A stretch of 63,606 nucleotides of DNA, counting the filler, from Reclinomonas americana ATCC 50394 (lineage: Eukaryota): NCBI GenBank assembly GCA_048213135.1. It is 17 parts of 17 records of this genome, joined end to end, with 100 filler letters (N's around TTAATTAATTAA, not from the genome) between each part and the next. Parts side by side here need not be neighbours in the genome. Positions count along the whole stretch, not along the records: positions 1 to 7,584 come from AFZH01022571.1; positions 7,685 to 14,297 come from AFZH01022572.1; positions 14,398 to 17,712 come from AFZH01022573.1; positions 17,813 to 23,122 come from AFZH01022574.1; positions 23,223 to 25,763 come from AFZH01022575.1; positions 25,864 to 29,300 come from AFZH01022576.1; positions 29,401 to 36,197 come from AFZH01022577.1; positions 36,298 to 38,564 come from AFZH01022579.1; 9 more parts are not named here. One strand, given 5' to 3'. Of the stretch, positions 171 to 60,906 are shown piece by piece (position 1 is the stretch's first letter; every line of letters begins with the position of its first letter). A model generated the notes under the pieces. It saw nothing but the letters and a program-made list of their open reading frames with translations. It was not told where the DNA came from and did no database searches. A program made the translations under genes and the position numbers.

Positions 171-2865
171 ATGGATCGCCACCCGCACATCCGCGGCACT
201 CGATTATCCACCGACGATCGTGCTGCTTCTGCCACCGCTGCTTCTGCTTCTGCTAACGACGATGATCGCAAACGCAACGACGATGATGACGACGACGACG
301 ACGATGACATGGTCGTCAGTGGCAATCGCCGTCGCAAAAATCACCGTGGCGACGAGCGACGGCGATTGCTGACTGCCGAGGACGAGATGAGTGAGTCGGT
401 GGCGCTGTCGCCGTCGGAGAGCGACATGCTGCAGTCGCCAAGTGGCGACGTTGTGCCGCTGCCACCGTCACCGCCACCGCCGCCACATCCCCCTCTGCTG
501 GTGCATGTGGAGCCGGCATTTGTGCCGCCGCCGCCGCCGCCACCGTTGCTGCTGCTGCAGCCCGAGGTCGCGGTCGAGGTTCCTGCTCCGCTTCCGCTGC
601 CCGCCGGTGCTGCGGCGGCGGCGGCTGGGGACGTGGAGGTCGCCGTGCCGATGATGCCGAATGTGGCGCCCATGTCGAGGGCAAGTCGTGCGGAGCGGAT
701 GGAGCGTGTGTCGTGCAACGTGTGCAAGGTGCTGGCGTTTCCATGTGCGAGCTCGTGGTACTTTTGCACCGGGTTCAGCGAGGGTTTTATCGAGGAGTGT
801 GATCGACTGGTACGTTGTCCCTTTTCTTTGCGTTCCGTTCGCCTCACTTACCGAGTGCGGCGCAGCACTATGCGTATGCCTGCTCCCGGAGTATGGAGCG
901 TGCATGGAATCCAGTTGCGCTGAACCCTCGATGCCTCTCTGTCTCCCATCTTTTTCTCTCTCTCTCTCTCTCTCACACACACAAATGAATTTGGATTCGC
1001 AGTGGAAGCTCCCCACGGAAAACACCACGGACATGGTCACGCGCGGCGCGCGACGTGTGTTTTGCTGTCGCACCACACCGCCGGATCCCGACCTGTCGTG
1101 GATGGATGATGCACGAGGTGTGAAGCGTGGAAACCTTTTGTTTCTTCCTGTAGCTCACTCACCGTTGCTCCTCCACGCAGCCAACGGCATTCCTCTGCAT
1201 CTCTTCCTCAATCGCCCCGACTTGATGCACGGCGGTCCGCGGCCACCGGGTGCCGATGGCGGGGCGGGGGCAGCCGCGGCAGCGGCATTAGCAGCCGCAG
1301 CCCCACCACCCGCAGCGGCAGATGATGCGCCGCCTCCCGCTGTTTCCAACGCAGTCATGGTGGTCGACGGCGAGGTGGTTGACATTGTGCACATTCCACA
1401 GCCGCCACAAGGACCACCTCCACCACCACCGCCACCACCTCCTCCGCCTGCACGCTCCGCGTCTTTGTCGTCGTTGGCTGGCGCCTCGGCGTCGGCCATT
1501 CCGAGTGTGACTGCGGGTGAGGCGGTGGATGACGAGATGTTTCTGTGCAAAGTTGAGTGGAAAGGGGGGAAGGGGGGAGATGGGAAAGAGAGTAGCACAG
1601 AGAGAGAGAGAGAGAGCAGAAGGCAAGGGCCAAAGGAGGCAGCGACATCCGGAAGGACGAGCAGAGAACATGGGAGAATGAGCAATCCGTGGGTGGTTCC
1701 CACTGCTCTTCCTGCGACGATTGCTCCTTCTTTCTTTATCTCTCTCTGTGCGTCCTCATTCCGGTGCGTTGTTTCGACCGCCGGTTTTCTGCCTTAATCC
1801 CCTTTTTCTCCTCTCACTTCCGGCATCCTCTTCTCACTGTGTCGTTGTAACTGCCGTCGATTTTGTTGATCCAGCTATATTCATCCTTTCTGCCTTTAGT
1901 ACTTGCCACGCTTCTTTGCATACTCCTCTCAGTGCAGAGCTGCTCACCATCTCCTTTGCTTCAAACTTTGCTGTCTGCCTCCCTCCCTCTCTCTTCTCCT
2001 CTTTCTCATTATCTCTCTTCTTCCAGATTCACCACATCCACTTGCATTCTTTACTCACTGCGCTGTTTCCAACTTGGCTGTCTGCATCTCTCCCTCTCTC
2101 TTCTCCTCTTTCTCATTATCTCTCTCCTCCTCCCCGTTGCACCACATCCGCTTGCGTTCTTTACTCACTACGCTGTTTCCAACTTTGCTGTCTGCATCTC
2201 TCCCTCTCTCTTCTCCTCTTTCTCATTATCTCTCTCCTTCCAGATTCACCACACCCGCTTGCACTCTTTGCTCATTGCGCTGTTTCGGCTGCGCTGTCTT
2301 CGGTGATCATCTTGAATCCTCGTTCTTCCGTCTCTCTCTGTGTATCTATCTATCTGTCTCATCCTTCATCTCCTTCTCTCCTCCCCGTTTCACCACATCC
2401 ACTTGCATTCTTTTGCTCACTGCGCTGTTCCAGCTTTGTTGTCTCCGTTGATCAACTCTATCTCGCTCTCTCTCTCTTTCTTTCTTTCTTTCTTCCCACC
2501 CTCCCCTTCCCCTCCCACCCCATCTCCCCTCTCGTATCCATTATCTCCTTCTCTCCCACCTATTCTTTACTCACTGCGGTATTCAGCTTTGTTGGATTCG
2601 TTGATCAACTCTCTCTCTCTCTCTTTCTTTCTTCTCACCCTTCCCTTCCCCTCCCACCCCTTCTCCCCCTTTGCAGGTCTGCTACGCCCGACCAATCGAC
2701 TGCGCGCTGCTGGAGTGCGGCCATCAAGTGGCGTGCGTGCAGTGCGCGCGCGAGTGCGCCACGTGCCCGATTTGCCGCGACCCCATTGTGCGCATCATCA
2801 AGATCTACATACCGCAGCTGAGTGGCACCAGCGCCGCGGGCGGCAGCGGCGTGCATTCCAAGTGA
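171..2865 (+). CDS. RING-HC (IAP/Mdm2-like C3HC4) E3 ubiquitin ligase, 5 exons
   Basis: Frame-consistent GT-AG exons 171-809, 866-913, 1003-1117, 1181-1551, 2677-2865. The spliced C-terminus CK|VCYARPIDCALLECGHQVACVQCARECATCPICRDPIVRIIKIY is a classic RING-HC. The N-terminus is acidic and Pro-rich. Confidence 0.8.
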
Positions 2866-2981
2866 CAATGCAACTGTACTCTTTTCCCTCCAGAAAAAAC
2901 ACACTCCCGTTGCCGTACATTGGCTTTCCCCTTAACAATTATTTTCTGCCACGTACAAACACGCAAACACACACACACAGC

Positions 2982-4222
2982 TCACAGCATCATCGGGTCG
3001 TCGCCGAACAACGCGTTGTACATGTTATCGTGGTCATCGCCGTCGCCCACGGGTGCCACTGGAGCCGCGAGTGGAGGCAGGCAAGCGGCGGTGTCGACGT
3101 ACGGAAGTGGGTGATGGAAGTCGTCCATCCAGCTCTCCGTTGGTGCCTGTCGTGGTGCCTCCATCTCGAGCTCGGGCGCACGGTACTGCACCGGCGGCAG
3201 TGGCAACAGAGGCAGCACCGGTGGTGGTGGTGGTGGTGGAAGCATGGTGATGGGCGATAGTGGCAGAGGGGTCATGGCGTACTGCTGCTGCATCGGCACT
3301 GGTGACGCCGCTCGGCCAAAGCTGGCAGTGGTCGGGTATGGCGATGGCATGGCACACACTGCCATGGGGAATGGCGACGACGGTGGGGCGAATTGCGCGG
3401 AGAGCGAAGGAGCCTCGACTTCGATGCTGTGATGATTCGAGCCTTGTGCGCCACCGCCGCGACGACGACGGCGTGGGGCCGCTGCGGTGTCGTCCTGCGC
3501 GGCTGCTGCTGCTGCTGCCTTCGAGATCCACCGCGTGTCGCTGCTGAGGTGCTCCGATCGGCACAGCTCGTTCCACGAGGCACATGTCTGCTTCCATCGC
3601 TCAAAACCAGGACCAAACTGCACAATGTAACAAGCGCAGCGAGACGTCAGAGTCGGACGAGTGCACGTGGGAGAGAGGCAGAGCGAGAGACAAACCTCGG
3701 CTGCCAGAAGAGCGTTGACACCTTTAAGGATGTTGCGCATAGGTGCCTTCTTCTTACCACCTCGCTCAAAGTTGGCGAGCACCCATTCGCGCGCCACGGC
3801 CACTTGAGTGTCATCGACTTCGCCGGTGCCCTTGGAGGCGTGCGGAACGGTACGCTTGCGCTTCGGCTTTGGCTGGCCGCGGCTGTCGAAGCTTTGCGTT
3901 TCGTCGTCGTCATTGTAGTCCTCCTCCTCTTCCTCGCGTGGTCTCCGGCGAGAGGTGCGAGTGCGAGAATTTGTGCGGGGGGCTGGTGGCGGCATGGTGA
4001 TTGTCATGTCCGGAAACAACACCGGCACTACCTCATCAGCATCGTCGGCTTCGATAATCATCTGCACCACGCAAGCAAGCAAGCAGAGAGAAATGCACAC
4101 ACACAGAGAGAGAGGGAGTGGTGGCGTGAGGAGTGGCGGCCATGTCTGCGAACACGCACGAACACACTTCTCACCGCTTGCGCGTTGCTCAGCTGCGCAG
4201 TTGATCGTCGCTGGCGTTGCAT
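2982..4222 (-). CDS. Hypothetical protein (basic NLS-like patch KPKRKR, Pro-rich tail), about 3 exons
   Basis: GC-rich open exons with GT-AG junctions (e.g. AAE|GTTTGT...cag|FGPG). No family recognised. Confidence 0.5.
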
Positions 4223-4763
4223 GGTGATGGAGTGGAAGAGAGAGAGACAGAGAGGGACTATGAAGAAGAGAGGGGAGGGGAGCACACAACGTTGGCTCTC
4301 AGGAGTGCAAAGAAAGTCAATGTGAGAGCAGTCGAAAGTGTGGTGTCGTGAGGTCATTGCGCGAGAAATCCGGCAACCAGGACGCTACGTGATATTTGCG
4401 ATAGTCGGACAACTCTGCTTTTCTGGGATTCAAACACATAGAATACGGAAAACGTGACCCGGCGCCTTCCGACACCAGACGCTGTACAGAAGCATGTTGT
4501 CTGACGTGAATTTTTGAGCCCGCTGCGCATGCACGCAACACGACACTACGGTTGAGGGGGATCGATCGCGCTCCTCCAACACTTACACGACGGCTGCGAG
4601 AGGAGGCGAAGAGTGAGAGCACAAATCTCACATGTCTGACAACTTTCTGACAGGCGCGGGGGCTGCGCATCTCATCAGACAACAAGAACAAGCCAGTGTC
4701 AGTTTTCGTTGTAGGAGACGACATCACCGATATAAAGTGTTCGGCGTGCACTGCCACGTCTGT

Positions 4764-7094
4764 TTACGCAATGCGATCTGCGTCTCGCACAGCTTCCTCA
4801 AAGAGACGGGCGAGACGCACGGCCAGGGACTGCAATCCGCGAGCCTGTGCACGTGCACGACAAAAATGGTGAAAAACCAGCAATGTGTGAGGAAGATAAA
4901 AATAGGCAAGTGTCTCTCACTGGAGCTCGTCGACCCTCACACGAAACTCCTTGCAAGTTGCATAAGACGGCCACCACCACGCCTTCTGCCGCCCTCGAGT
5001 CCGATCTGACGATTAGTGGCAGAAAGCAAGTATTAATGCAAATCCGACAACCGCGACGACACGTGACATCATGAGTGACAGCAACACAGAAAGAGGCAAA
5101 AGCAACGACCCCCGCCGACACAAACACAACTCCAGTGGTGGGGCCACAGACAACAAAATAGAAACAAGAACCCCCCACTGTGAGAAATAAGGAGAGAAGA
5201 GAGCTCGAGAGAGAGACCGCCCTTCTCGCTCTGCACTTTCTCCTTCCCCGCTTTCCCTCCCTACTCTTTCCCCCTCCGAGACTCACGTTTCCTCGTCGCC
5301 AACGGTGGTCGGCGCCGGTGGCAAGAGGACCAGCATGGAGGTGCCGCCAACAGCGCCTCCCGAGTGACTGACAAAAAAGTGCTGCTGTGCACCGTGGCCG
5401 TCAAAGAGCTGGTGAGCGGGGTGCACCACGAAGCCGAGCCCTTTTTTTTCATGGCAAGGGGTGGGAGACATGTCGCTCCTGGTCAACACCAACAAAACCT
5501 CACTCACCATACGACGCCTGGTGCCATTCACGTGCCGGCTCGGCGCTTCCATCATGGGGTGTAAACTGTGATGGCCAAACGGGAGGGAGAGAGAGTGTGT
5601 GGGCACGGTGATTTTGTTCAGCAAAGTCACAGCGGGTACACACCATTGCGCGCACGGACGACGGTTTGAGGAACGAGTGGCCGTCGTCATCCTCACGCTG
5701 CTGCTGCTGCCATGAGTGCAACATGGCGGCGCCGAAGGCACACAAATCCTCGGCGGTGGAAAGGAAGCCTGTGGGAGAGACGAGGTCAGAGAAGAGACAG
5801 AAAGAAAGAGTGTGAGTGCGTGTGCGAACCACCGCCAGCCCATTTCAATGAGCAGTCGACTGCTGGTGCATTCTGGAGTCGGTGGGGCGACTTGCGTGAT
5901 CGCACGTACTGTCGCGCTCGTCCGTGCAGAATGTCTTCCGGGCTGTGGTGACAGGAAAGGAGGTTTAGGACCAGTTTCACGGCATTCTTCTCGCGGCTCG
6001 GTGTTTTCTCCCTCCCAGGTTTCTCTTTCTCTCTCTCTCCCCTCGCCCGACGATGTTCTCTCTCTACATATCTTCTTCGTTCTCTCCTTTCCTCTTTCCA
6101 TCTCTCTTAGTCTCCTCCTCTCTCTCTTTCCCAGTCTGTTCTCTCTCTCTGCCTCTCTCCCTCTCTCTTCTCTCCCCCTCTCTCACCGATCGGGAACCGT
6201 GTTGCTCATGCCCAGCTCACGGAACATGCCTGCACAACCATGAGCCAACACCTCCCCACAAGACACGCAGCAACGACCACCAACCTTCCATCACACTCAA
6301 AAACTCCTTCCCACCGCTCACCGCCTCCACAATCGCCGACAACACCGTGTACCCATGCGTCGTATACACGCGCTTCTCACCAGGCACACAGCACAACGGA
6401 TCACTGCGTGCGTCACCCCACTCAACAACCAAGCACGCGCGCAACGGAGAATCACCCGCAAGCCTCGCTGCGCGCAACTTGGCAAACACCCTCATGGCCT
6501 CGGCGACCGTCTCATATCGATGATTCGAGTGAAACTCGACGGGATTCTCACCGCCCTCAGGCACCAAGTAGTGCCGCACGCAGCCGAGATGCGACAGCAG
6601 TTGTCTCACCGTCACCGCTGCTGCAGAGCTTGCAGGCCCCGGAGGCGCAAATGAAGGCACATAGCGCGACACAGGCGCGTCCAGATCAACACGGCCCTGC
6701 TCCACTCTGTACGCTTATATAATCAGCTGCAGACTCCTTACCAGATGTGCAAAAAAAGAGCGTTTCCAACTGACAATCGCATGACACAGGCGGCGGTGAG
6801 CGGTTTCGAAATCGACGCAATGCGCATGAGCGATGAGTGCGGTGAGCATCGCACGTGGTTCTCCACATCGGCGAATCCGTGTCCGCTGCAGTGCACCAGG
6901 CGGCGTCCGATGCGCACGGCCACGGTGAGGCCGGGAATGCCGTGTTCGGAGCAGAAGCGATCGCAGAGTGTGCGCGCGTGATCGCGGGCGGAGGAGAGTG
7001 AGTGATCGACTGGGGAGGGTGAGGAGGAGGCGGAGAGTGGGAAGGGTATGCCAAGGAGAAGAGTGCCGCAGGTGGCTAGCGCGCGCAGGAGCAT
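4764..7094 (-). CDS. LACTB: LACTB-like serine beta-lactamase-fold hydrolase, multi-exon
   Basis: Spliced product contains MRIASISKPLT (SxxK), LVEQGRVDLD, RQLLSHLGCVRHY, NDPL..PG...YTTHGY (YxT), KWAGGGFLS, YGLGF and HSGGAVGGTS. The N-terminus MLLRALAT looks like a targeting sequence. Confidence 0.88.
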
Positions 7095-7438
7095 GGGGAA
7101 AAAGTTGTCGTCCTGTGGCGGGTTTGGGGGGAAGGAGAGAGAGAGAGAGAATAAAGGCGCGGGAGGTCATCCAAGCTTGCTTTTCGTTGTGCCGTGGCCG
7201 AGGCTCATCCGCACGTGTGCCACAAAGCATAGGAGAAGCGAAAGCCTCAAAAGTGTTCATTCTCTCATACAGTATGCATCGCTGCGCTGTGCATGCAGCA
7301 GGTGATGGCCGACAGCAAGGAGGGTGGAGAGGAAGAGGTGGATAGTGGGGAGGAAAGGGGGGAGAAGGGGGAAACGGAGGGAACATTGCAACGTCGACGT
7401 CGACGTCGGTGGTGATCGGAAGTACTTCCTGTGCGTTG

Positions 7439-7492
<54 letters not shown>

Positions 7493-7584: not shown

Positions 7585-7683
7585 NNNNNNNNNNNNNNNN
7601 NNNNNNNNNNNNNNNNNNNNNNNNNNNNTTAATTAATTAANNNNNNNNNNNNNNNNNNNNNNNNNNNNNNNNNNNNNNNNNNN
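7585..7683. other. Assembly gap spacer (N...TTAATTAATTAA...N), first of 16
   Basis: The same spacer with stops in all frames recurs at about 14298, 17713, 23123, 25764, 29301, 36198, 38565, 40048, 44742, 46087, 47578, 49906, 51373, 57256 and 61186. The NHE and VIT1 genes continue across spacers, so at least those contigs are in scaffold order. Confidence 0.97.
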
Positions 7684-7822
7684 NCGTACGTTAGTACGTA
7701 GTACGTACGTACGTACGTACGTACGTACGTTACGTTACGGTAACGTTAACGTACGTACGTACGTTCGTCGTCGTTCGTCGTTCGTTCGTTCGTCGTCGTC
7801 GTCGTCGTCGTCGTACGTGTAG

Positions 7823-7880
<58 letters not shown>

Positions 7881-8179: not shown

Positions 8180-8839
8180 GCGCTCTGATGGGAGCTCGTC
8201 GTGGCAGCACTGCGTCGCTGGTGATGGGCGGCTCAGCGGCCGCACTCATTGCCTTTTTCACCTATCGCGTGTCCAAGGCGCTGTCGACCCCGTGGCCTCT
8301 CTTCAGTTGAGTGACACAAAGGGAAGAGAGGGAGGGGAGAAGGGGGAAGCATGATTGTGATTCTGTATTCATATGCGGAAGAATCGCATGTCTTGTCTCT
8401 ATAATGTGCGAAGAGAGTAAGGCGAAAGCCAGTGAGGAAGTGGCATGTGGGTTTGCAGCGAGGGTGAGAGACACTGGCGGAACAGTTGTCGAGCTCGTAT
8501 TCTCGCTCTATGAGTGCAAGCGACATCCATCCTCGAACTTGGCACACTGACAGACTGGTTAACGAGACAAGTCGAGGCAAAACATACATCTCGTCCTTGA
8601 AGCTTGCGCTCTCTGTCATGCATCTCCCTGTTACTGGCCTTGAATCTCTTTCATCTCCTCACCCTTCTCCCTCAACCTTCTCTCCCTCAGTCATTGCCGT
8701 CTTCCTGGCCATCTTCATGGGCGTGCGCTTCCTCAGCTCCGGCAACTTCATGCCCGCCGGCCTCGTCGCCCTCCTCTCCGCCTTTATGGCGCTGCACTAC
8801 GCCATGGGATTCTCGTCGGGAGGCGTGGAACGCGTGTAA
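8180..8839 (+). CDS. TMEM14: TMEM14/FAX family membrane protein (5' exon missing)
   Basis: Exons 8180-8305 and 8691-8839 give GALMGARRGSTASLVMGG...MGVRFLSSGNFMPAGLVALLS, which carries the TMEM14 hallmark motifs. Confidence 0.85.
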
Positions 8840-8882
8840 AAGCTCTGCCACAAGTTGTGCGTTGGTGCGTACACGTTTTCAT

Positions 8883-11800
8883 TCAGTGAAAATGCCGATT
8901 CATACGCCGCATCATGAGGTTGAGCAGGGCCGACGGCGTGTAGTGGCGACCGGCGGGAAGCGTGTGACCATCGGAGAGCACATTGATGACTTCGGCGCAC
9001 TGCAAGTGCGAGAGGATGCGTGTGGACAGTGGGCGACAGTCGCTGAGCTCCACGTCCACGTCGCGCTCGGCCTGTGCCCGCAGTCGGCGACGCAGGCGGT
9101 CGGGATCGTTGTCGTCGATGGCAAAGGCGGCGTCGACCATGGCACCGCGGCTGTCGCTGTCGTGCGTCAGCGCGGCGAGGCTCTGTGTGCGCACCGTTTC
9201 GATCCGCAGTTCCTCCTGTGTGTGCGTGTGGTGAGTGATGCGTTGAAGAAAGGAAGGAGAGGGAGGATAGGGTTTGCGCAACGAGGCGTCGCTTGACGTG
9301 TCGCTCGTGCTTCCGCTCGTACTCGAGCTGCTCGCAGGCGCTGATGCGGCGCATGCGGGTGACCATGGTCATGGTGGCGTTTTCGATGATCATCCTGTGA
9401 CGGGGGGAAAGAGATGAAGAGAGGGTGTGTGTGAGAGAGAGAGAGAAAGGGGAAGAAGTAGAAGAAGAAAAGAAGGAATAGAAGAGGCAAAGCGATGCGA
9501 CAATCCAAGAGTTAGGAAAGGAGGTGCACTGAGTGGAGAGACGCCGCGGCCGTGGAAGGGTGGCACAGGCAGAACGGAGGAGAACTTGAAAGGTCCAGCG
9601 ACAACGGCATCGGGGGACGAGGGAAAAAATGAAGAGGAAAGAGAGAGAGAATGTGGGAGCTGAACTGGTGGAGTGACGAGGGAAAGAGAGTGGAATTATG
9701 TGACAAAGGGTAATGGGGGCTCCAAATATGAAGGAGAAAAAAGAAAGCTGAACTTGTGGGTTGAAGAGGGAGAGTGGAACAAAGGAAACGGGGCTCCTGC
9801 ATCCGCCATTAAAAAGGGCCTGGGGCCGAGAACTGAATTACATAAGGAAGGAAGGACTCAGACACAGGAACTGCAGGAGAGGCAAGGTGCGAAGAATCAG
9901 AGTGATGACTGGTTCGCAGCAGCGCGCGCGAAAGAGAGAACGACAACCGACGAGCAACGAGATCCCACCCACGAACCATGGCAAGCCATGCGTGACAGTC
10001 GACGGGTTCTTCAAGTGGTGCGCAAAGGCCTTGTATCTGCGTGTTGGAGACAAGAATGAGCCACCGTCACCATGAGCGCGTCTCGTGCACTACACGCAAC
10101 GAGTCCTCGGTGAAACCCGCACGGCGGAGAAGCGTGGTGATCGGTGCCTGTGCGAGATGTACAATTGAGAACAACAGCATACGTACGTTAGAGGAAGCAG
10201 TACATCGCACCGTTTGATCTGACCACTCGAGCTCCTCGTCGCCATGCGAGGAGACGCGGTGGACGACGCAAAGGATGCGGCGAATCTGTCACACGATGAT
10301 GGTGAGGAGAAAGAAGGGAAGCAGAGGGAAGGAGAGCGAAACGAGAGGGAAGGAGAGGGGGGGAGAGGGAAGCAAAGGGAGGAGAGGAAGGAGAGGGAGG
10401 AGAAGGAGGAGAGGGAGACGAAAGGTGACAAGCTCGGCAAGAGCAAACGCTGAACAAGTGTAGGAAGAGCAGAGGAGGACGAGCAGATATGGGAAGAGCA
10501 CAGAAGAGAGAGCACAGGGGAAAGAGCAAGGGAGGAAGAGCAATGGTGAAAGTGAGAAGGGATAGAGAAGGGGGAAGAGAAGGGGGAAGACAAGGGGGAA
10601 GAGAAGGGAGAAGGAGGGGAAAGAGGAGAAAGAGGGGAAAGAGGGGAAAGAGGGGAAAGAGGGAAAGAGAAGGGAAAGAGGGAAAGAGCAAGGGGGAAGA
10701 GCAAGGGGGAAGAGAGGGGAAGAGAAGGGGGAAGAGGGGAAAGAGGGGAAAGAGGGGAAAGAGGGAAGAGAGGGGAAAGAGGAGAAGAATTCGAAGCGAT
10801 GGAAAGAGGAGAAGAGAAATGGGGCAAAAAGCAGGAAACACAGGAAGCAACAAGAAGAGGAAAGGAGGGGACACAAAGAATGACAAGAAAGCGAGTGCGG
10901 AGAGTGAGAAAGTCAGTGAGAGAGAGAAGGACACAAAATAGAAAGGTCAGCGGCGAAGAAGGAGGTGAGACTGCTAACAGCGAAGCAGGCCGAAGATGAA
11001 ACAACGGCGCAGTGATCGTGTACCTTGATAAGGTTGAGGACGCGACACGCGGCGCGACACCGCAGAAATGCACGTACTGTGCGCTGCGCCAATGTGACTG
11101 CAGAGAGCGGGCAGAGATGAGACAACATAGAAGGCAAGGACGAAGCTCTGCGAGGCACAAACCTTTTCCTCGAAACTGTCGCACGGCACCAGCCAGCTGC
11201 ACAACAGAAAGAGTGAAATTGAAATTCACGCAGAAAATCTTCTCCCCTGCCACACCTTTTGCGACTCCGAGGTGTTGCGAAGGAAGGACTTGATGGTGGC
11301 CAGTGCACGGCGGATTTTCTGTCGCCGACAGTTGGCGACGAACCGAAACAGGTTGCTGCGGAGAGAGAATCAGCATGCCAAGCGCACGAATGCGACGTCT
11401 CTCGCCCTCGTGGCACATACCGACGCAGCACAAGCCAGGCTGCCTTTCGGCGCTTGGCCTGTCGCAGCTGGAAGCGCGGCCAGAAGAGACGCTGGAGCGT
11501 GACCACAGCGCGGACTCGTCTCCGCATTAATCGTTGTCGCTCGCGGTGCGCCTGTGCATGCCACATTGAGCAGCGCGACAAAGGAAGAAGAACAGCGGAG
11601 GAGAGGCACCTCCAAGCTGGCGGACAAGAAATGCAGCCGCTCCACCATGACCGACAGCGTCAACCACAGTCTGCGCCCACAATGTCAGTTCCTGATAGGT
11701 TTATGAAACAGGGAAAGGCAACAACGAACTTGTTGCACGGCCGCATCGCGCGCATGTACTGCTTGTGCTGCTGCAGTTCCTCCGCCTGCGCGTGCAAAAG

Positions 11801-13845
11801 ACCATCAGATGAGCAACCACTTCCCGTGACAAAACTCATCGCACCACTCACCGCAGCCTGCTTCCGCAGCGACTCGTTCACCTGCTCCTGTGCGCGCGCC
11901 ACACGCTCCTGCTCGTGTCTTATCTTGCTCTCCATGTGCCGCTGCAGCGATTCGACCAATCGTTCCTGATTCTCCTGCACCAGCTCCAGGCGACGCTCTG
12001 GGCTCAACCGAGCCGCTTCCTCACGATTCCGCTGCGAGGTTGAATGTGAGTGAGTAAACAAGATAGACACCCATTTCCCTCCATGTTGAGCCCACCTGCG
12101 TCACATTCGCTGCCGGATCGGAGGCACGGCGCTGCCGTCGCTCCCGCTCGTACTCCTCCACGCGCTTCTTGAGAGCGCGGCGTTCCTCAGGAAACTCGCG
12201 CATACGCTCCTCCGTCACCAGCAGCTGCTCGTGCAGACTCATGCGCTCCCACGATTTGTCAAAGCGTGCACCGCCGCGTGAACCGCTCTTGGCGAGCGGA
12301 GCGCTGCCGCGACGAAGCCGCCTGTGATTGTCGGTGGGCGGCGAGATGCCGGCGGCCGCCATGATGAGTGCCTGTCGTCGTCGCTCCAGCACGGCGCCGC
12401 TGGCGGGGGGCAGGCCGCTGCTAAAGTCCTCGCGGAAGACCAGGAGGTCGACTGAAGAAGGGGAGGAAGGGAAACGGGAGGGGGGATGAGGGGAAGGGAG
12501 GGGAGGGTCGAAAAGAAGAATGAGAAAGCGGGAGCAGAAGAGTGATGAGAAGAAGAAGAAAGAGATGAGCAGAAGGAGACGTGGAAAGAAAAGAGAGGCA
12601 GAAAAGGAGAAGACAGAAGGGGAGGGAGAAAACGGAAAGAGGAAGAGGGAGAGAAGAGTGATGAGAAGGGAGACAGCACCGAGAGAGTGAGAAGGGTTGA
12701 GGAGAGAGGGAGAGAGGGAAGGAGAAGAGGAAGCCGAGGAGAAGTGGAGAGGAATTGGAGAGGGAAGAAGAGCAGAGAGGCAGAGAGGTGCGATGCGGAG
12801 AAGAGTGCAATAAGAAGGGAGGCAGCGCAGGGAGACTGAGGAGGGACGAGGAGAAAGAGAAAATTGGAAATGGAGGGGAAACGGGGAAGAGGAAGTCGTG
12901 GAGAAGTGGTGGGGAAGTGGAGAGAGAAGGAAAGTAGAGAGAGGTAGAGGATGCGATGCGGAGAAGGGGTTGCAGGAGAGAAAGGGAGAGAAGAAGAAGA
13001 GGAATTCATAGAAAGAAGAGGACGGGAGATTGCGAAGAGGCAGGAGGTCGGAGGGAGCAGAAGAGGGAGGAAAGAAAGAAGAGGGAAGAGAAGGGGGCAA
13101 GGTACACAAGGAACACGCAGATGGAAGGATCGGAAGAGAGGAAGGGAACAAAAGGTGGTGAGGGGGAATAGAAGGGAGAATGTGATGAAGAAAGGAAAGC
13201 GAGAGCGGAGGAGGCGCTGCGTGTAGTAGAGAGGAGAGGCGGTGCGACTAGAATGCCTCGAGCAACGCAACACATCAAGTCGTGGAAGTCGCGGGCCACC
13301 TCCTCACGACTTCTCCCCTGCACCTCCTCCTCCTCCTCCCCTTGCTCCTCCTGCTGCTGCGCCTCTCGCTTCTGCAGACCGCCAATCGCCGGTAACCTCA
13401 CCGGTGCAGTCGACAACTGCCGACCTACACTCCCACCCACAGTAAACACCAAGGGCAAAAGAGAGAAACTTCTTCGATATCTGCAGCGCTGCTCACCATG
13501 CTCGTCCGCGCAACCCAATGACAAAAATCCGAACATGTCATCCTCCTCCTCCTCCTCTGCCTCCTCCACCTCCTCCTTTGCGCGCCCCAGTGCAGCATTC
13601 ACCAGTGCATCCAACGCCGCCGACGCACGCGCTCTGGCCACAATCAGCGCCGGATTACTCACCGACTCGCTCCATTGCTGATCGCGACGCAGAGTGCGCG
13701 CAGTGGCGACGGGCGGCGACGTGCGACGTGCAGGACGGCGTGAAGGCGGGGAGGGTGGCGACGAAGGCGCAGTGGGTGGCGGCGGGAGAGAGCTGCGAGT
13801 GTGTCCTGTTTCCCCCCCAGAGTGTGAGCGTTTTTCGCGTGTCAT
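8883..13845 (-). CDS. Hypothetical coiled-coil protein with IQ-like motifs, more than 10 exons
   Basis: Chain of frame-consistent exons (e.g. DLMF DLLVFREDF, RNREEAARLSPERRLELVQENQERL, VVTLQRLFWPR, VTLAQRTVRAFLRCR, KRRL|EELRIETVR). Exons between 9400 and 10950 are uncertain. Confidence 0.55.
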
Positions 13846-52473: not shown

Positions 52474-55400
52474 ATGGCCCTGCCCGAATTTGAAACCGCT
52501 CGCGCCAAACTCCCACCGACGCCAGCTGCAGTGCCGGAGAGGTACGGAGTGTGCCACAAAAGTGATTGCCCCACCCTCTCTCTGTATGTTCTCATGATTG
52601 TGTATGTGTTATTAGTGTTCGCGATGCTGGTCTTCCGTCACTGTCCTTTTGCGTCAGCAAGGATGCCAGCTTCCGTCACTGGAAGGTACCGGGGGCGGAG
52701 TACGCGCTGCTTGTTGTCGGCGCGCTGCCGTCCATGTTTAGTAAGCACGAGATCGCGGCTGCCGTTCGTGAGCGGCGTGCGGAGGTCGTGTTTGTGATCG
52801 ACAGATCGAGCTCCATGGACTGCTTGGTGGACATCGGCGGGCGTTCCTCTCGCACCTCGCGACTCGAGTGCGCCATGGACGCGGCGAGTGTCGCGCTGAA
52901 CACCCTTGTCGGTGCCGGCGAGGACAAGCGCTACTCCAAGGGCCACGTCATGTACTTTAACCACGCGATTGGCGATTTGATTGAGTGCGGCGGCGGCACC
53001 GGCATTGCCATGCCGCGAGAGCAGCCGAGCGGTACCACGTCGCTCTTCGAAGCGCTGGAGCATCTGGGCACCACTATTGTCCCTCGCCTTGCCAATTCTG
53101 GCGCCTCGGAAGTCGACGTTGTTTTCCTCACCGACGGATATCAAAGGCCTGTCATGAGCACGTCCGAATCCAGCAGGTTCCTGGAGGCGATGCGTGACGG
53201 GCTGCAACGTTCCGAAGTCAAGGTCAAGTTTGTCACGGCCGGCGTCGGTGCCGACCACGACTACAAGACCCTCTTTGGTATTATCGAAATGGCCGGTACC
53301 GGTTTTTACACTGTCTTGGACAGCAGCACCTCCAGCAGCTTTGGCGAGTACCTGTCGTCGACTCTGGGGTTGCCGACGCGTGCCATGCGCCGCACCCTTG
53401 CCAGCGGTCACGAAATCATCTTCCCCGACGGCCTGGATGGCTACGGGTACGGTTTGGTGCCGACAACGCATCCGAGCATTGTTGACGGGCGACTCGACCT
53501 CGGTGGCGATGCCGGAGTTCTTCGCGGCACCCCCTTGCCAATGGAGGAGGACATTGAAGTGTGCAAGGGTGTGCTGTGTGACGTGATTGCCCGTGCTCTC
53601 TGCGACGCCATTGGGCGCGGCGTGCGGACCATGCGACAGGTGCACGATGTGGCCGCTCTGGTCCGGCTGGCGCGCAACCACGGGCTCAGCGTCTCCGACG
53701 AGCTTGCCGCTGCACTCGTGCACTCTCGCACATTGGGTGGCGCGGGTGCGAGCATTGAGCTGCTGCGCGATATCTCCGACGTGATGATGGGCCGGATCAA
53801 GCAGGCGACTGCGTCGCTGGACCGGATGATGATGCACCGCATCGTCCGCAACACCGCCATGATGCAGATGTTTGCCGATATGAAGCGCACAGCCATTGCG
53901 GAGTTGCACGCCATGCGTGATGACGTGCGACGACCGGAGCTGTCGCGCTTCCTGGACACGGACGGCGATTTGCCGTATGTCGCGGTGCAGGTGCTCCGAG
54001 TCGGTCGGGTGGTGGGAGCCAGCCCGCACGACTACAATATCGCCCTGCCTGGCGAGTGCGGCTGGCGATACAACGAGGCCAAGGAGGCGTTTGACGCTCA
54101 GCCACGAAGCGACAACGACGGCGACGATACCAACGGCGCTGTCGGCAACATTGTGGCGCTTCCGTTGTGCCCGAGCAGCGAACTCGTGCGAGTCTGGTAC
54201 CTGACCGCGTTCTCGCCGACGTCGTTGATGACGACTGGTAACGCGGCCGCCGGCTCCAACGAGCACATGCTATCGGTCTGCACGCGCGCCTACATGCTGG
54301 CACGCACGCGTGCGGAGCCAAAGTTGCTTGCGCTGCTGCGCAACACGGTGTTGGCGGCGCTCTGTCAGCCGCTGGTGGAGGGTGGCGAGCGAACTCTGGC
54401 CATGGAGATCACGGACGCGGCGAGCAGGTTCAAGCGTGACGCGGCGCACCGTGGGCGTGAGGTGGTGCACTCGGTGTCGGCTCTGATGACGCAACTGCAC
54501 ACTCTCACCGGCGCGGACGCGGCCCACTGGCCTCTCGGCATTGCCGGTGTGTCGGTGGAGCCCGGCGGCGAACTTGCTCGTGCACTCATCGAAGAGGACA
54601 TGGTGCGTGCGCTCACCTACCTGCGCGCGGACCAGACGACGAAGCTCGCCATTGGCGCCCACACCGACGTACTGTTCAAGGACATCCAACCGTTCTCGGT
54701 CACGAGTGCTACCGAGCATGTGCACGTCACCGGAGATCATGTCGACGTGGTGGTCGTGGACGGACTGGTGATCAAGGGCGTGCGCACTCTGCTAAAGTCC
54801 ACCTTTGAGCAAGAGAAGAGTCGCTTCACGGTCCGCGGCGGGAAACCGCACATTGAGCCGCGCAAGGGACAGGCCTACATTCACGCACTGAAGAAGCTGG
54901 CAGACGGCATTGCCATGGGCGCCGACATGATTACGGTGGTGCCCAACAAAGCCGTGGTGGATTGGGCGACCGGGTGGATCGCGGCGCGGATGGCTGAGCG
55001 TCACTACGCCCTCCGTGGCGATTACCACGTGGCGCCCGACACGGCATTTGGCATCCTCCTGACGGCGCTGCCCGCTGGCACTTCGACGGCCTTGGCCCAT
55101 GCGGGTTCCTACGCCCAGGTGGCTGCGCTGGAACTGGAGGCCGTCAAGGAGCAAGAGAAGAAGCGCTATGCGGCGGCTGCCGCTGCACACAAGATCAAGG
55201 CCACGTTCGACGCACTGGCGCTGATCATTGTGACGGAGCTGAGTCCCGCCGAGCAGGAGCTGGCCGTGATGTGTTTCGGCTCGGTCGGAGCTGGCGTGTC
55301 GTCGCGCATGCGCCGAACCGTTCGAGCGTTTGTCGAGGGAACGCTGCACGACCCGTCTCCGGCCACGAGCAGTGTTGCCGATCTGAGTGCGCGCGACGAG

Positions 55401-55604
55401 CAAATGATGCACATGCGTCGCGTGCTGGCCTCGTACGGCAACAGCTGCGACACCCGCCGCACCGACATCCTCGAGGTGTGCGAGCCGGCCTCCCGCTGGG
55501 TTGCGCGCGGCCTGAAGAGTGTCTTCTATCGCAGTACTGCTGACGACAGCAACAGCAACAACAACAACAGCGGCGGCAGCGGTGGCTCGATTGTGCAGCT
55601 GTGA
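52474..55604 (+). CDS. Protein of about 1000 aa with N-terminal von Willebrand A (MIDAS) domain and unrecognised C-terminal region
   Basis: Exon 52474-52541 plus a single 2947-nt exon 52658-55604. VVFVIDRSSSM (DxSxS), SGTTSLFEAL, VVFLTDG, TAGVGADHD. Confidence 0.85.
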
Positions 55605-55619
55605 GCGGTAGAGAGAGAA

Positions 55620-56030
55620 AGTGTGTGAGAGAGAGAGCACCTCGCCACGTCTCGCTTGAGGGGGAGAATACTATACTACAAAGTGAAGACGATGATGCTC
55701 TCGACACACGATTAGGAGAAGATGGCAGAGGGGGAGAGAGAATTTGTCGTACGGCACGTCTCGCTTGAGTGGGGGGGGGGGGGGGGGGAAGTACTATTAC
55801 TACAAAGTGAAGACGCTGCTGGTCTCGACGTACGATTAGAATGAGATGGCAGAGGGGAAAGAGAATTTGTCGGACGGCACGACTCGCTTGAGGCGATACT
55901 ACAAAGTGTAAACATGTCGTTCCCGACACACATGATGATGTATTAGGAGAAGACGGTAGATCCAGAGGGAGAGAGAGGGTTTGTCGAACGGCGTCTCGCT
56001 TGAGGGGACACAAATGATGTAATGCGAAGA
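55620..56030. repeat. Degenerate tandem repeat of about 120 bp (3-4 copies) between convergent genes
   Basis: Recurring blocks GAATTTGTCG..CGGCACG.CTCGCTTGAG, TACAAAGTG and ATTAG..GAAGATGGCAGAGGGG. Confidence 0.75.
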
Positions 56031-56046
56031 GCAAACCGCAAGTGGG

Positions 56047-57187
56047 TTATATTAGCGCTACGACAGTGGCCGTCACGAGGAGAAGGAGCAGCCACGATGT
56101 GCTGTGCGCCGACGGTGAGGCGGCGTTGGGGATTGGGAGATTGAGATTGTTGCAGGTTGGGTAGGGGGCGTAGTCGGAGGTGACTTCCAGGGGTGGGCAG
56201 TCGAAGCCTGCGAGGAGGGGGAAGGAGAAGGGAGGGTTGAGGGGAAGGAGAAGGGTATGTAGGGGAAGGGAGAGAAGGGGGAAGAGAGACAGGAAGTAAG
56301 ACAACATGAGAAAATTGAGGAACAGAAACAGAAGGATAGGAACGAGAGATAACGAAATGTATGGATGAATACGAATGAAAGAAAAGGGAGAGTTAGAGAT
56401 AGAGAGGAAGAAAACAAGCAAGAGCGGCGATGGCAGACAGGAAGTAAGAAAGCATGAGAAAAAAAGGGAGGAATAGAGAGGAGCAAAAGAGTATGAAATG
56501 GATGGATGAATACGAATGAAAGAAAGAAGGAGAGGGAGTGTGTGTGAGAGAGGACGGAATTTCGAAAAGCAGCGATGGCGGGAGACAGGAAGCAAACAGC
56601 ATGAGAAAAAGGGAGAAGGAAGGCAGGAAGGAAGAAAGGAAGGAAGAAAGGAAGGAAGAAAGGAAGGAAGGAAACAGGAAGAAAGGAAGAAAGGAAGGAA
56701 GGAAGGAAGGAAAGAAGGACGAAAGAGAGAGAGGAAGGAAACAAGCAAGAGCGGCGATGGCAAACAGGAAGCAAGAAAGCATGTGACCAAGGGAGAGGAA
56801 ACGCAAGAGAAACAAAGAAAGAAAGAAACAACGATTGAAGGAAAGAAGAGGAGAGTGAGCGAGAGATCAGGAGAGAGAAAGAGAGACAGAAGAGAAGAAG
56901 AGAAAGAAAGGGAGAAAGAGAGCGAAACAAAAAGCAGTGAAAGAGAGGAAGGCAAAGTGCAAACGATGGAGAGCAGGGCACTGTGGCCGTCTTGTGCAAA
57001 CTCACCTAGATCGGTGGGGCACTTTCGCACCACCTCGTAGCACAGATCCTGACACGGTAGCACCTGTCCGTTGGACGGTATCACCGGCTGCTGACAAAGC
57101 GGGAAGTTGATGGCGCACGCCCAGTTCTTGTAGGCCTTCAGGCACGAGTTGCACTCGTAGAACGGGTAGAAATCGCGGCAATCGTAT
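56047..57187 (-). CDS. Mid1/FAM155(NALF)-like Frizzled-type cysteine-rich protein, C-terminal part
   Basis: Exons 57006-57187 and 56047-56207 give CNSCLKAYKNWACAINFPLC...VLPCQDLCYEVVRKCPTDLGFDCP...CN plus a hydrophobic GPI/TM-like tail. Confidence 0.72.
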
Positions 57188-57355
57188 CTGTGTATTGGAG
57201 CGGTGAGTGGCTTGGATGGACACCAACGAACCACAGGCTGTACAGCTATCGGGCANNNNNNNNNNNNNNNNNNNNNNNNNNNNNNNNNNNNNNNNNNNNT
57301 TAATTAATTAANNNNNNNNNNNNNNNNNNNNNNNNNNNNNNNNNNNNNNNNNNNN

Positions 57356-57399
<44 letters not shown>

Positions 57400-57713
57400 C
57401 TGCCCGTCTCTATTCTCTGTGATCACTCTCTCTCTCTCTCTCCTCACAGTCTGCCCCTCTCTCTATTCACTGTGATCACTCTCGCAGACTCCTCTGTTTA
57501 TCTCATTAGCTGAGATACTGGCGTTCCCGCGCAAACCTCAGACAACTCAATCTCGCCCTCTTACCCACCTCTCACACTGGTGAATGTGCATGCGACAAGC
57601 AACAGCAGCAGCAGCAGCAGCGTATGGGAAGAGGCTTCGTGCGCTCTCCGCGGCCTTGACATGATTGACGAAACGGTTGAGGGACACAGAGGACAGCAGT
57701 TTATCTCCATCAT

Positions 57714-60261
57714 TCACGTCGCACAATGCATGCCCACCAGCGCAATGAGCACGCCCATCCGCTCCTCCAACTCCTCCTTCTCCGCTGCGTGACGAGCGGG
57801 CACCGATTTCCGCATGAATGCAAGTGCCGCCTGCAGCGACTGACGCACCTCGTGTGCCGGCACCGTCAGAGGCGGCTGACTGCCGTCGCACTCGGCGTCC
57901 AGACGCGACACAAAGTCCGACGCCACCAGCGCCTCCCACATGAGCAGTAGTCGTTGCCACTCGGCCACATGCTGCGGTTGCAGAGGTCGGAACATGGCGT
58001 ACGGCGGCTGCTCGTCGCTGCTGCTGCCTCCGGCTGGTGTGGGTGCGCCGAATCGCTCGCCAATGACATACAGACACGAGTCGGGTAGCTGTGGCGGCGA
58101 GTGTGAGCGACTATATGCGTAACATGAGAGAGCTTCCTACTCACCAGTGCCTGCAGAGCCGGATGCGCCGAGTGCAGTTGCAGCACGCGCTCGGTCACAC
58201 TCGGATCACCGCCATGGTCGCGCATGCAAAACGACATTTGATCGGCCAAGTCATGCACCGCCGCATCGCCGGGTCCCGCGTCGAACGCAGGCGGCCACGT
58301 GAGGCACCCGTACTGACCCGACACCAGCGTCGCCATCAGCGACTTTATGAGCTGCATGTGCATCTCGTCGGGCACGCCATGAATGAGAATGTCGGTGATG
58401 GTCGGCAGGAACTCTTCCATGGGGTTGCCGTAGATGGCGGCGGTGAGATCTGCGGGGCGATGACAGTGAGTGAGAGAGCGAGAGGGAGAGAGAGATTCGG
58501 CAGAAGGCAACTCCAACCTCTCATCGTGTTCGCATCACCCGCCAGCGCCACCGTCTGATACACCAACTCGGCCACAACGCCCAACAGATGCTCCACTGCC
58601 GGTGACTTGGGATCCGCGCGCACCTGCTTGAGCGCATATTCGAGTGTGACACGCACACGTGCGGGGCGACGAAAGGCGGCCGCCGCCACCGAAGGCATCA
58701 CCGTGCAAAAGTGACGCGACAGTTCGACGGCCACGCGACCGGTCGGGGCACCGGCGAGCAAGCGGAAGAGTTTCATGAGGACATCTCTGTGGCATGATGA
58801 GGAGGGCACAAAAAAAGGGAGTGCGAGGAGTGTGAGGGAGGGAGGGGGAGGCGCAACTCGGGGCAGTAGTAGCCGGCGAGCTGATGTCGATAGAGTGCGT
58901 CGAAGAGTACTTTGAGGCCTGCAGGAGAAAAACACGAATGAAATGGGGAAAGGGCGGCAAGAGAGGAGAGAGAGGTGAGGGGAAGGGGGGAAGGGAGAAG
59001 AGCGAGAAGAGAAGAGAGAGTGGAGAGGAGAGAGGAGAGAGGGGAAGGGAGAAAAGAGTTGAAGAAGGGACGAGAGTGAGAGGAGAGAAGAGAGAAGGGA
59101 GACACCAAAATGAGTGAAACAAAGGAGAAGAAAGATTGAGAGAGAAAAGGCGATGAGCAACTGAGGCCGCAAACACGAAATGAGGCAAGAGGAGAGAAGA
59201 GAGCAGAAAGCACAAGAAACAAAACAGACGCAACGAGAGAGAGACAGATAGAGACGAAAGAGAGTTGAGTACACAAGAGAGTGAGGCCTGCAGAAACGAA
59301 ATGAGTTGAAAAGGGAAGAGAGTGAGAGAAGAGAAGAGCGATAGAGAGACCAAGAGAACATTGATGCAGACACCAAAATGAGTCAAAGTAAGAGTTGAGC
59401 AGCAAGAAAGCTAAGACATTGAGGCTTACAGAAACCACGAAATCAGTTGAATGAGGGCTAGGAGAGAAGAGAGAGAAGAGAGACCAAGAGGCGAAAGATG
59501 CAGAGAAACCAGAATGAGTGAAAACAGCGGAGAGACTAACGAGAAGAGAGACTTGAGTAAACACAAGAGACTGACAGATGAGCACTTTGAGGCTTACATA
59601 AACTACGAAATGAGTTGAATGAGGGCTAGGAGAGAAGAGAGAGAAGAGAGACCAAGGGGCGAAAGATGCAGAGAAACCAGAATGAGTGAAAACAACGGAG
59701 AGACTAATGAGGAGACAAGAGACTGACAACGAGGACTTTGAGGCTTACATAAACCACGAAGTGAGTTGTCTCTCTCATTCTACAGCTGCCGTCCATTCAT
59801 TACCACTCTGCGCGCCGCGCTTCAACTCGCCACGACGCGCGTGTTTCTCGACGAAAACAGCGAAACGATTGATGGATGATTCAAGGAAGAAATCAACTGT
59901 AATCAATCTCTCTCTCACCCCTCTCTCTCAAATGTGTGCATGTGTGTGTGCATGTGTGTGTGCAGGTGTGTGTGTGTGTGTGCATCTGTCGCACTTTCAC
60001 ATGTTTTTCCCTCATTTTTTGCCTCTCACCTTCACCCTCATCTCCTCCCTGCAACAACGAGCTGACTGCCACCGCCATTCCATGCGGCAATGTGCGCAGC
60101 TCACTCACACACGCGCCCACAAACACCTCCTCGCGCAACACCGACTCGAACGACAGTGACACTGCGCGCGACGAGGTCGATGTCGACAGGGGCGACAGGG
60201 GCGATTCGCGGGTGATGATCGAGGCCTTGGAGGAGGTCTTTCTCCGCTTCACAGACGCCAT
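57714..60261 (-). CDS. Hypothetical helical protein, multi-exon; 3' end approximate
   Basis: MASVKRRK..., VDFFLESSINRF, GLKVLFDALYRHQLAGYYCPE|DVLMKLFRLL, DLTAAIYGNPMEEFLPTI. Junctions are frame-consistent. Confidence 0.55.
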
Positions 60262-60635
60262 GGTGTGGAGAGTGAGAAGGTGGTTTGCTGGTGGTGCGCG
60301 GGAGTGCTCGCAGGTTTGTGTGGAAAGTGCGAGAGAGGATTTGTCTCTCACTTTCTTTCTCTTTTGCTCTCTCTTTGCTCTCTCTCGCCATTCCATGCGG
60401 CAGTGTGCGCAGCTCACTCACACACACACCCACAAACACCTCCTCGCGCAACACCGACTCGAACGACAATGACACTGCGCGCGACGAGGTCGATGTCGAC
60501 AGTGGCGACAGGGGCGATTCGCGGGTGATGATTGAGGCCTTGGAGGAGGTCTTTCTCCGCTTCACAGACGCCATGTTGCAAGCAGTTGATCTTGAGGTTT
60601 GCAAGGTGCAATGTGCGCGGGAGTGCTCGCATGCA
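60073..60635. repeat. Tandem duplication (period 313 bp) of the first coding exon and upstream sequence
   Basis: 60073-60262 is nearly identical to 60386-60575, and GTGCGCGGGAGTGCTCGCA occurs upstream of both copies. Confidence 0.92.
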
Positions 60636-60682
60636 GTGAACTGTCCATTGTCACTCATCACTCTTTCTCACACACACACGCC

Positions 60683-60906
60683 ATGGGCAAGATCGCACAG
60701 TTGGTCATTGGACCTGCAGGCAGTGGCAAGGTAGTCTCTCACACACGAGCACTGTTCTTTTATTCTCAAATTGCATCGCATCTCTAACTTGACTTGGCAG
60801 ACCACCTACTGTCACACATTGCGGGAACGATGCGAAGTCGGCAAACGCCGTGTGCATCTTATGAATCTCGATCCAGCTGCGGAAGAGGAAGTCGACTGGG
60901 CGATTG
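60683..60906 (+). CDS. GPN3: GPN-loop GTPase 3, first two exons
   Basis: MGKIAQLVIGPAGSGK|TTYCHTLRERCEVGKRRVHLMNLDPAAEE (P-loop plus NLDPAAE). Confidence 0.85.

Follow-up and report, generated by a model that had tools for sequence, protein, structure and literature searches.

Shifted-register 5' splice sites in human genes were reportedly described by Roca and Krainer in 2009, and bulged-nucleotide registers of U1 small nuclear RNA (snRNA) are said to have been described by Roca et al. in 2012. Shifted-register sites make up a very small share of human sites. Ordinary donors that lack a G as the last exonic base (position -1) lean on stronger intron-side pairing with U1. Here we analyze the introns of a 63,606-nucleotide (63.6-kb) stretch of eukaryotic nuclear DNA from Reclinomonas americana ATCC 50394 (the window), which has ~55% G+C and carries densely packed genes with short exons. 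These introns start in two ways. (i) The consensus of the standard donors is G^GT[GA]NG[T] (the caret marks the cut), mostly G^GTGAGT, GTGCGT, or GTGTGT. (ii) The consensus of a second, abundant class, referred to below as shifted, is H^GTTG[C/A]G[T/C] (H, any base but G), with the cut before the G of GTTG; U1 may recognize this class one base out of register. For human 5' splice sites, Tan et al. (2016) and a 2022 review present shifted and bulged U1 registers as established. At rare human sites the cut is reported to be fixed at GU, not by the U1 register; a test oligonucleotide of Tan et al. (2016) reads ACA^GUCAAGUAUA, with A at -1.

Gene structures were derived solely from the window sequence and from homologues. 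Introns were predicted with a Viterbi gene finder that models coding frames, shadow strands, introns as jumps, and rule-based acceptors. To avoid circularity, it was written with donor scores that used intron bases only (GT[AG]NG, GTTG[AC]G, or other) and were blind to the exon side. It returned 134 introns, 62 of which passed a reliability filter (gene score of >100, both flanking exons of ≥30 nucleotides [nt], and no N). Earlier versions, with either no signal models or self-trained position-weight matrices, chained or fragmented genes, and a signal-only intron caller was dropped because it chose internal GTs. The final version reported a donor at 891 instead of the introns at 810 and 914 of the manual model, placed false exons at 43505-43733 (donors 43638 and 43734) upstream of 43822, and produced tiny first exons. 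Our standard set of 26 donors corresponds to the 28 reliable standard donors minus 891, superseded by a complete RING gene model, and minus 43638 and 43734, contradicted by exchanger homologue alignments, plus 810. The shifted list of 22 donors (17 GTTGCG and 5 GTTGAG) combines gene-finder, manual, and homology-derived sites; base profiles and energies were computed on a set of 21, and mean pair counts also on all 22. By evidence, 6 of the 22 were placed by homologue alignment, 2 by a complete open gene model, 2 by the gene finder plus solved-structure alignment, and 8 by the gene finder alone, and 4 are graded weak (8306, 42295, 13271, and 45876).

The UFC1 gene (15097-17280, minus strand) has four introns, the first with a standard donor and the other three with shifted donors. 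Homologues were fetched with one exon and then aligned to the window. The best identities in the searches for UFC1 and for the exchanger treated below were 80% and 51%, respectively, and the matches did not include the annotated proteins of the window itself. The UFC1 introns are as follows:

16330..17280, minus strand: UFC1 intron 1, standard G^GTGAGT, placed by homologue alignment
16199..16272, minus strand: shifted intron T^GTTGCG, 74 nt; ...TALIA^YQKINK... equals ALI-x-Y of the homologues, ungapped
15330..16066, minus strand: shifted intron T^GTTGAG, 737 nt; QFD^IPALYP equals QFDIPVTYP of homologue P0026
15097..15161, minus strand: shifted intron A^GTTGCG, 65 nt; LSLA^LGPWLA equals LALALGPWLA and LSLALGPWMA of homologues

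Over the junction at 16066 the Pfam UFC1 profile positions continue from 80 to 81. A cut displaced by one base would give non-GT-AG borders and, at QFD^IPA, also a V in place of the I present in 6 of 6 aligned homologues.

In the Na/H exchanger gene (plus strand), the product of exons 42688-42791, 43822-43888, 43957-43979, 44051-44349, and 44650-44741 aligns to residues 15-212 of homologue P0040 with one gap opening, and donors 42792, 43889, 43980, and 44350 are thereby fixed:

42792..43821, plus strand: shifted intron A^GTTGCG, phase 2; ...RDEAQ^YLLVLF... colinear with P0040
43889..43956, plus strand: shifted intron C^GTTGCG, 68 nt; MLRF^HIHLLPE^SAVTMF corresponds to LLKF-HFHYLPE-SVATIL of P0040
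43980..44050, plus strand: intron after G, G^GTATTC, lacking the +5 G; homologue colinearity
44350..44649, plus strand: standard intron G^GTGAGT; FLFG^SVISAID colinear with homologues
45160..45379, plus strand: standard intron G^GTGTGT; HIE^VGLSLVF corresponds to HIEVGMFLLL of P0040
45518..45577, plus strand: shifted intron A^GTTGCG, 60 nt, in frame and stop-free; homologue alignment

The intron at 43889 is followed by a 23-nt micro-exon (43957-43979) that codes for HIHLLPE, colinear with HFHYLPE of P0040. Removal of intron 45518-45577 reduces the gapped positions of the P0040 alignment (201 residues) from 20 to none and improves the bit score with each of the four homologues; a surplus of 20 residues in the open reading frame (ORF) with respect to all four disappears. 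Donor-like copies (GGCGCA^GTTGCGTGATG and a variant) recur every ~138 bases at 42792, 42930, and 43066 in a tandem repeat that opens the 1,030-base intron, and homology alone cannot say which copy is used.

The first gene of the window, encoding a RING-finger protein, runs from an ATG at 171 to a stop at 2865 (1,362 nt; exons 171-809, 866-913, 1003-1117, 1181-1551, and 2677-2865), and its reading frame is open only with the following introns:

810..865, plus strand: standard intron G^GTACGT; complete gene model
914..1002, plus strand: shifted intron A^GTTGCG, 89 nt; complete gene model
1118..1180, plus strand: standard intron G^GTGTGA; complete gene model
1552..2676, plus strand: shifted intron A^GTTGAG, 1,125 nt; complete gene model and gene finder

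The 1552 junction, F-L-C-K^V-C-Y, creates the first C-x2-C of the RING. This intron contains several tandem copies of a ~120-base unit (…tctcattatctctc…ccacatccacttgcattctttactcactgcgctgtttcc…).

In two further genes, solved protein structures support a shifted intron that is in frame and stop-free:

26511..26729, plus strand: shifted intron A^GTTGAG, 219 nt, ARPC2 (p34-Arc); gene finder and structure alignment
26901..28067, plus strand: standard intron G^GTGGGT, ARPC2; VFLK^QLNDAKK colinear with VFLQEFVDARK of homologue P0078
50446..50481, plus strand: shifted intron C^GTTGCG, 36 nt, VIT1; gene finder and structure alignment

The read-through ORF of ARPC2 has 74 surplus residues with respect to solved ARPC2 chains, exactly at the 26511 intron, and the alignment to a partial ARPC2 homologue stops at 26510. 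A word-index search returned no ARPC2 homologues, and an exhaustive search with the 48-residue exon gave only nine weak matches; with so few homologues, only one ARPC2 junction is firmly colinear. In the alignment of VIT1 with the solved chain 6iu3_A, there is a break after ORF residue 50; this residue ends at 50443, three bases short of the donor, and surplus residues follow it. An intron of 36 bases would be unusually short.

Eight shifted donors are thus firmly placed and two more (26511 and 50446) are well supported, all cut before the G of GTTG. That the class is an annotation artefact, with the wrong GT chosen or no introns at all, would be in keeping with the share of sites that lack homologue, structure, or complete-model evidence (12 of 22) and with the gene-finder errors at 891 and at 43638 and 43734. 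We regard it as very improbable, because six junctions are fixed to the residue by homologues, two by a complete gene model, and two by solved-structure alignments.

The two classes differ in the base that precedes the cut. GTTG[AC]G occurs 96 times on both strands of the window, preceded by A in 30 cases, T in 30, G in 22, and C in 14. At the 22 shifted donors the last exonic base is A in 14, C in 4, T in 4, and G in none, versus G in 21 of the 26 standard donors (p=3e-9). Several subsets agree with this result. (i) Among validated donors, G is at -1 in 0 of 8 shifted versus 7 of 7 standard (p=1.6e-4). (ii) In the reliable gene-finder set, with nothing dropped, the values are 0 of 14 (A 8, C 3, T 3) versus 21 of 28 (Fisher p=4.4e-6), with G in 10 of the 20 other donors. 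(iii) In all predicted introns they are 0 of 17 versus 33 of 74 (p=2e-4). (iv) GTTG[AC]G hexamers that are not donors have G at -1 in 22 of 74 cases versus 0 of 22 donors (p=0.0027), all 22 G-preceded hexamers of the window being counted as non-donors. (v) When the 96 hexamers were ranked by local features blind to -1, 2 G-preceded hexamers fell in the top 27 and 20 in the other 69 (p=0.03). These data establish that both classes are real, that both are cut at GT, and that class is tied to the last exonic base.

The original prediction, made by reading the sequence, had listed 21 shifted donors, none after G (13 A, 4 C, 4 T); our list without 45518 reproduces these counts, and the 60-base in-frame intron at 45518 was probably overlooked. 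The link between -1 base and class, whose absence was named there as the contrary outcome, was present in the window predictions (0 of 14 versus 21 of 28 with G). The statement that nearly all standard donors follow G is correct for the validated donors (7 of 7) and too strong for the noisier gene-finder set (75 to 81%). Its three named exceptions all recur as predicted donors:

21989..22046, plus strand: standard donor not after G, A^GTGAGT; gene finder, reliable set
6707..6774, minus strand: donor T^GTCAGT at 6774; gene finder, reliable set
5280..5287, minus strand: donor C^GTGAGT at 5286; signal-only caller and gene finder, acceptor uncertain

The common spelling G-[G/T]-T-G-[A/C]-G proposed for both classes applies to all shifted donors, but only ~60% of the standard donors spell G^GTG[AC]G; 21 of the 26 have G at +3 and 18 have A or C at +4.

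The lack of G could also stem from composition, codon use, intron phase, or neighbor-dependent mutation and be unrelated to recognition. The sample is small, and -1 is a third codon position in the validated shifted donors of phase 0 (7 of 8). We consider this explanation quite unlikely, because the hexamer outside donors does have G before it in 22 of 74 cases, because standard donors of the same genes come after G, and because five of the seven validated phase-0 codons (CCA, AAA, GCT, GCA, and GGA) have G-ending synonyms. The same codons bear on the proposal that the shifted donor frees the exon end from constraint: the remaining two (GAT and TTC) cannot take G, in agreement with it, and the five with G-ending synonyms do not support it.

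To compare registers, we used the U1 5' end AUACUUACCUG, as given in a table of Tan et al. (2016); a canonical end reads ACUUACCUG. Standard donors (n=26) form on average 7.5 pairs in the canonical register (-7.0 kcal/mol) and 5.0 pairs in the register moved by one base (+1 register). For the 22 shifted donors the respective means are 4.2 and 6.8 pairs; on the 21-site set, the canonical register gives 4.1 pairs and no stable duplex, the +1 register 6.8 pairs and -1.6 kcal/mol, and a register with a bulged U 6.6 pairs and -0.8 kcal/mol. The +1 register exceeds the canonical one in pair count at 20 of the 21 sites. Its nearest-neighbor energy is lower than that of the canonical register at 11 of the 21 and never worse. 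The base profile also slides by one: T at +7 in 13 of 21 shifted donors resembles T at +6 in 16 of 26 standard donors, and G at +8 (9 of 21) resembles G at +7 (11 of 26). At -1, the order of bases in the shifted class (A>C=T>G) is similar to that at -2 of the standard class (A 9, T 8, C 7, and G 2 of 26), in line with the suggestion that the enrichment in A mimics the usual A at -2.

These results would be explained if U1 snRNA paired with the GTTG[C/A]G class in a register displaced by one base. The intron's +1 G would then lie opposite U1 C9, the place usually held by the exonic -1 G; the +2 U would be mismatched opposite C8; +3 U to +7 U would pair as +2 to +6 do in standard donors; and the exonic -1 base would lie opposite U10, from which a preference for A and a lack of G would follow. 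The sole GU present, and not the register of U1, would fix the cleavage site by way of U6, U5, and Prp8. We assign a probability of about one half to this reading of the window, that is, to two classes of intron start, the second being recognized by U1 one base out of register and cut at GU. The notion that the +1 G replaces the -1 G in U1 pairing, already contained in the original prediction, accordingly gains from the pair counts and the profile slide and loses from the weak duplexes and the lack of T at +5.

In a bulge register, pairing would be normal from -1 to +2, the U at +2 or +3 would be bulged out, and G[C/A]GU would pair as +3 to +6. Its 6.6 pairs come close to the 6.8 of the shifted register, and the Figure 1C legend of Tan et al. 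(2016) documents bulges at +3 or +2. Nevertheless, a bulge keeps -1 opposite U1 C9 and thus favors G there, as in the standard donors (21 of 26), whereas G is found in 0 of 22 and the A at -1 of 14 of the 22 would pair with U10 only after a shift; moreover, at 9 of the 21 sites the bulge is energetically worse than the +1 register, and at none is it better. We therefore prefer the shifted register and judge the bulge unlikely. Alternatively, a dedicated factor might serve GTTG[C/A]G, either a variant U1 fully complementary to A^GUUG[C/A]GU (e.g., with A for C at position 8) or, independently of U1, U6, U5, or a protein. In favor of this, GTTG[C/A]G donors form a discrete and abundant class (14 of the 62 reliable gene-finder introns, 3 of 4 in UFC1, and 3 of 6 mapped in the exchanger) that has its own consensus GTTGCG[T/C] with no T at +5 and pairs weakly with the generic U1; with a hypothetical U1 end carrying C8A, each site would gain one pair (7.8 versus 6.8). 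In the window, no snRNA is among the Rfam matches, no family reaches its gathering threshold, and U1 was found neither at that threshold nor at E≤1, so a variant U1 has no direct support, and one ordinary U1 accounts equally well for the one-base slide of the whole profile. We give a dedicated factor a rather small chance, though a better one than the bulge.

A number of observations weigh against recognition by U1 one base out of register. (i) The U1 end used is generic and may not be the organism's own. (ii) No register gives a stable duplex at 10 of the 21 shifted sites, above all those with GTTGCG. (iii) The mean +1-register duplex of -1.6 kcal/mol is weak next to the -7.0 kcal/mol of standard donors. 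(iv) At +5 the shifted class has C (16) or A (5) and no T, whereas its standard counterpart, +4, is T in 7 of 26 (p=0.012); none of the register models considered explains this lack of T. (v) A G at -1 could wobble-pair with U10, so that its strict exclusion is not predicted. (vi) If G were as frequent at shifted -1 as at standard -2 (2 of 26), a count of 0 of 22 would not be unusual (P=0.17); G may therefore not be forbidden outright, and the never-G rule may reflect a strong preference carried over from -2. (vii) When the pattern was widened to GTT[AG]NG, the gene finder yielded no further reliable donor in the window. (viii) Twelve of the 22 shifted donors rest on the gene finder or weaker grounds. 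(ix) Two G-preceded hexamers rank as plausible donors in the blind local ranking:

13508..13515, minus strand: G^GTTGCG hexamer at 13514, possible counter-example judged exonic; local score 119.8
30434..30441, minus strand: G^GTTGCG hexamer at 30440, possible counter-example judged antisense; local score 22.0

The first shares its acceptor with the donor at 13271, in frame and 243 nt upstream of it. We judge it to be probably exonic because the intervening 243 nt are GA-rich and open and score about -24 as an intron; 13271 is the better donor, and 13514 lies inside the GA-rich exon upstream. The second is judged probably antisense because a plus-strand exon at 30415-30521, part of a gene with a higher score, overlaps it.

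Relatives were sampled as 10 metagenome UFC1 loci, all distant (68 to 77% identity in the best exon). GTTG[AC]G was present at none of ~20 inspected exon ends in these loci, and their readable donors are ordinary, mostly G^GT[AG]NG. Two ciliate-like loci share two of the three shifted intron positions of the window UFC1, namely, those after QFE/QFD and after LALA/LSLA (1548 and 1926 in L007; 3978 and 4244 in L008). There too, the last exonic base is not G (GAA^GTATAA; GCT^GTAATA or GCT^GTAAAT). The shared introns look old, and these exon ends agree with the view that shifted donors are found at positions with an exon-final base other than G. More tentatively, this lineage might have made the shifted register a second main way to start an intron, used by a fifth to a half of its introns, after any exon that ends in A, C, or T, perhaps with a U1 variant matched to GUUGCGU, so that U1 recognition and cleavage would lie one base apart genome-wide. 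We see a modest chance of this, slightly above that of a dedicated factor.

The remaining shifted donors comprise eight predicted by the gene finder and the four weak ones:

9216..9282, minus strand: shifted intron C^GTTGCG, 67 nt; gene finder, reliable set
10037..10100, minus strand: shifted intron C^GTTGCG, 64 nt, 13-exon gene; gene finder, reliable set
30821..30892, plus strand: shifted intron A^GTTGCG, 72 nt; gene finder, reliable set
31016..31341, plus strand: shifted intron T^GTTGCG, 326 nt; gene finder, reliable set, local score 57.4
36539..36642, minus strand: shifted intron A^GTTGCG, 104 nt, MFS transporter gene; gene finder, reliable set
48824..49376, plus strand: shifted intron A^GTTGCG; gene finder, reliable set
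49478..50321, plus strand: shifted intron A^GTTGCG, VIT1 gene; gene finder, reliable set, Pfam VIT1 match begins at 50321
58787..58857, minus strand: shifted intron A^GTTGCG, 71 nt, Mid1-like gene; gene finder, reliable set
8306..8690, plus strand: candidate shifted intron A^GTTGAG (weak); early gene-finder runs, local score 18.0, no homology support
12452..13271, minus strand: shifted intron T^GTTGCG, 820 nt, very CT-rich (weak); top local score of 141.5
42100..42295, minus strand: candidate shifted intron A^GTTGCG (weak); signal-only caller, low-scoring gene model
45875..45882, plus strand: probable shifted donor A^GTTGAG at 45876 (weak); homologue alignments stop at 45874

The exon upstream of 13271 is a long GA-rich open frame, and the donor was graded weak because the gene finder put only a 4-nt first exon there. 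No acceptor was found for 45876, with a contig linker at 46087. The gene finder alone also predicts donors with T at +3 outside GTTG[AC]G (11729, 18002, 37391, and others), three of which, A^GTTCGT, A^GTTTCG, and A^GTTCTG, come after A. The U12-type donor consensus is [AG]TATCCTT, which none of the 22 donors matches since all read GTTG[AC]G, and the validated junctions are all GT-AG, with no GC-AG or similar donors among them.

Pfam was run on the stop-to-stop ORFs of the window and gave matches to a beta-lactamase-like gene, UFC1, Rit1, two WD40 genes, ARPC2 (p34-Arc), an MFS transporter, the Na/H exchanger, VIT1, a VWA-containing ORF, a Mid1-like gene, the start of a GPN-type GTPase, and an EGF/DSL-repeat gene. 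The sense strand of the introns is CT-rich. A CTCAC-like motif (CTCAC or CTCAT) lies ~15-30 bases 5' of most YAG acceptors (e.g., 843-847 and 1155-1164, plus strand) and is probably the branch site; read on the opposite strand, CTCAC gives GTGAG, the core of the standard donor. All N runs (16 places, e.g., 7585-7684, 14298-14397, 44742-44841, and 61186-61285) read N44-TTAATTAATTAA-N44, a 100-base linker of the contig-joining type with stops in all six frames, which makes the window a chain of 17 contigs. The linkers are flanked mostly by GA, GT, or CGTA microsatellites, and genes that cross them, such as the exchanger with its exon ending at 44741, are interrupted by gaps of unknown size. The Rfam matches at E≤1, all below gathering scores, are to plant and animal microRNA and similar families; they sit on GA, CT, or GT low-complexity repeats (48887-49018, 40201-40384, 16880-17017, and others) and are probably due to chance.

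Splice-site models built on a single donor matrix would miss or misplace the GTTG[AC]G class, and ORF-based annotation would run through the in-frame, stop-free introns 26511-26729, 45518-45577, and 50446-50481 and add false residues. If the class extends genome-wide, the organism would offer thousands of introns as a natural system for probing the limits of separating U1 binding from the catalytic cut site, a question so far addressed at only a few atypical human sites.

No report of this motif class in connection with introns or splicing, or with shifted registers, was found in open-access and bioRxiv full text, although the organism's genome paper may contain one. The comparison with known systems leads to the following picture. 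(i) Like the human shifted-register sites, the window class is GT-AG and U2-type; in both, the +1 G would pair with U1 C9 and not C8, the downstream pairs would move by one, and the last exonic base would face U10, while the cut stays at GU and recognition is uncoupled from it. (ii) The human sites are described as atypical, whereas the window class is abundant, accounting for 14 of 62 reliable introns and for half or more in two homology-mapped genes; it is also set apart by a discrete GTTG[C/A]G motif, a +3 U that would pair with A7, and a +5 base that is mostly C. (iii) Bulged registers have in common with it a one-base offset beyond +2, and its GUU start would permit a bulged U, but they predict a G at -1, which the window class lacks. 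(iv) The compensation between exon and intron sides in ordinary donors is graded, whereas in the window class one hexamer is exchanged for another that is offset by one base. The mechanism is thus known from atypical human sites, and what appears to be new is a discrete and abundant GTTG[C/A]G class.

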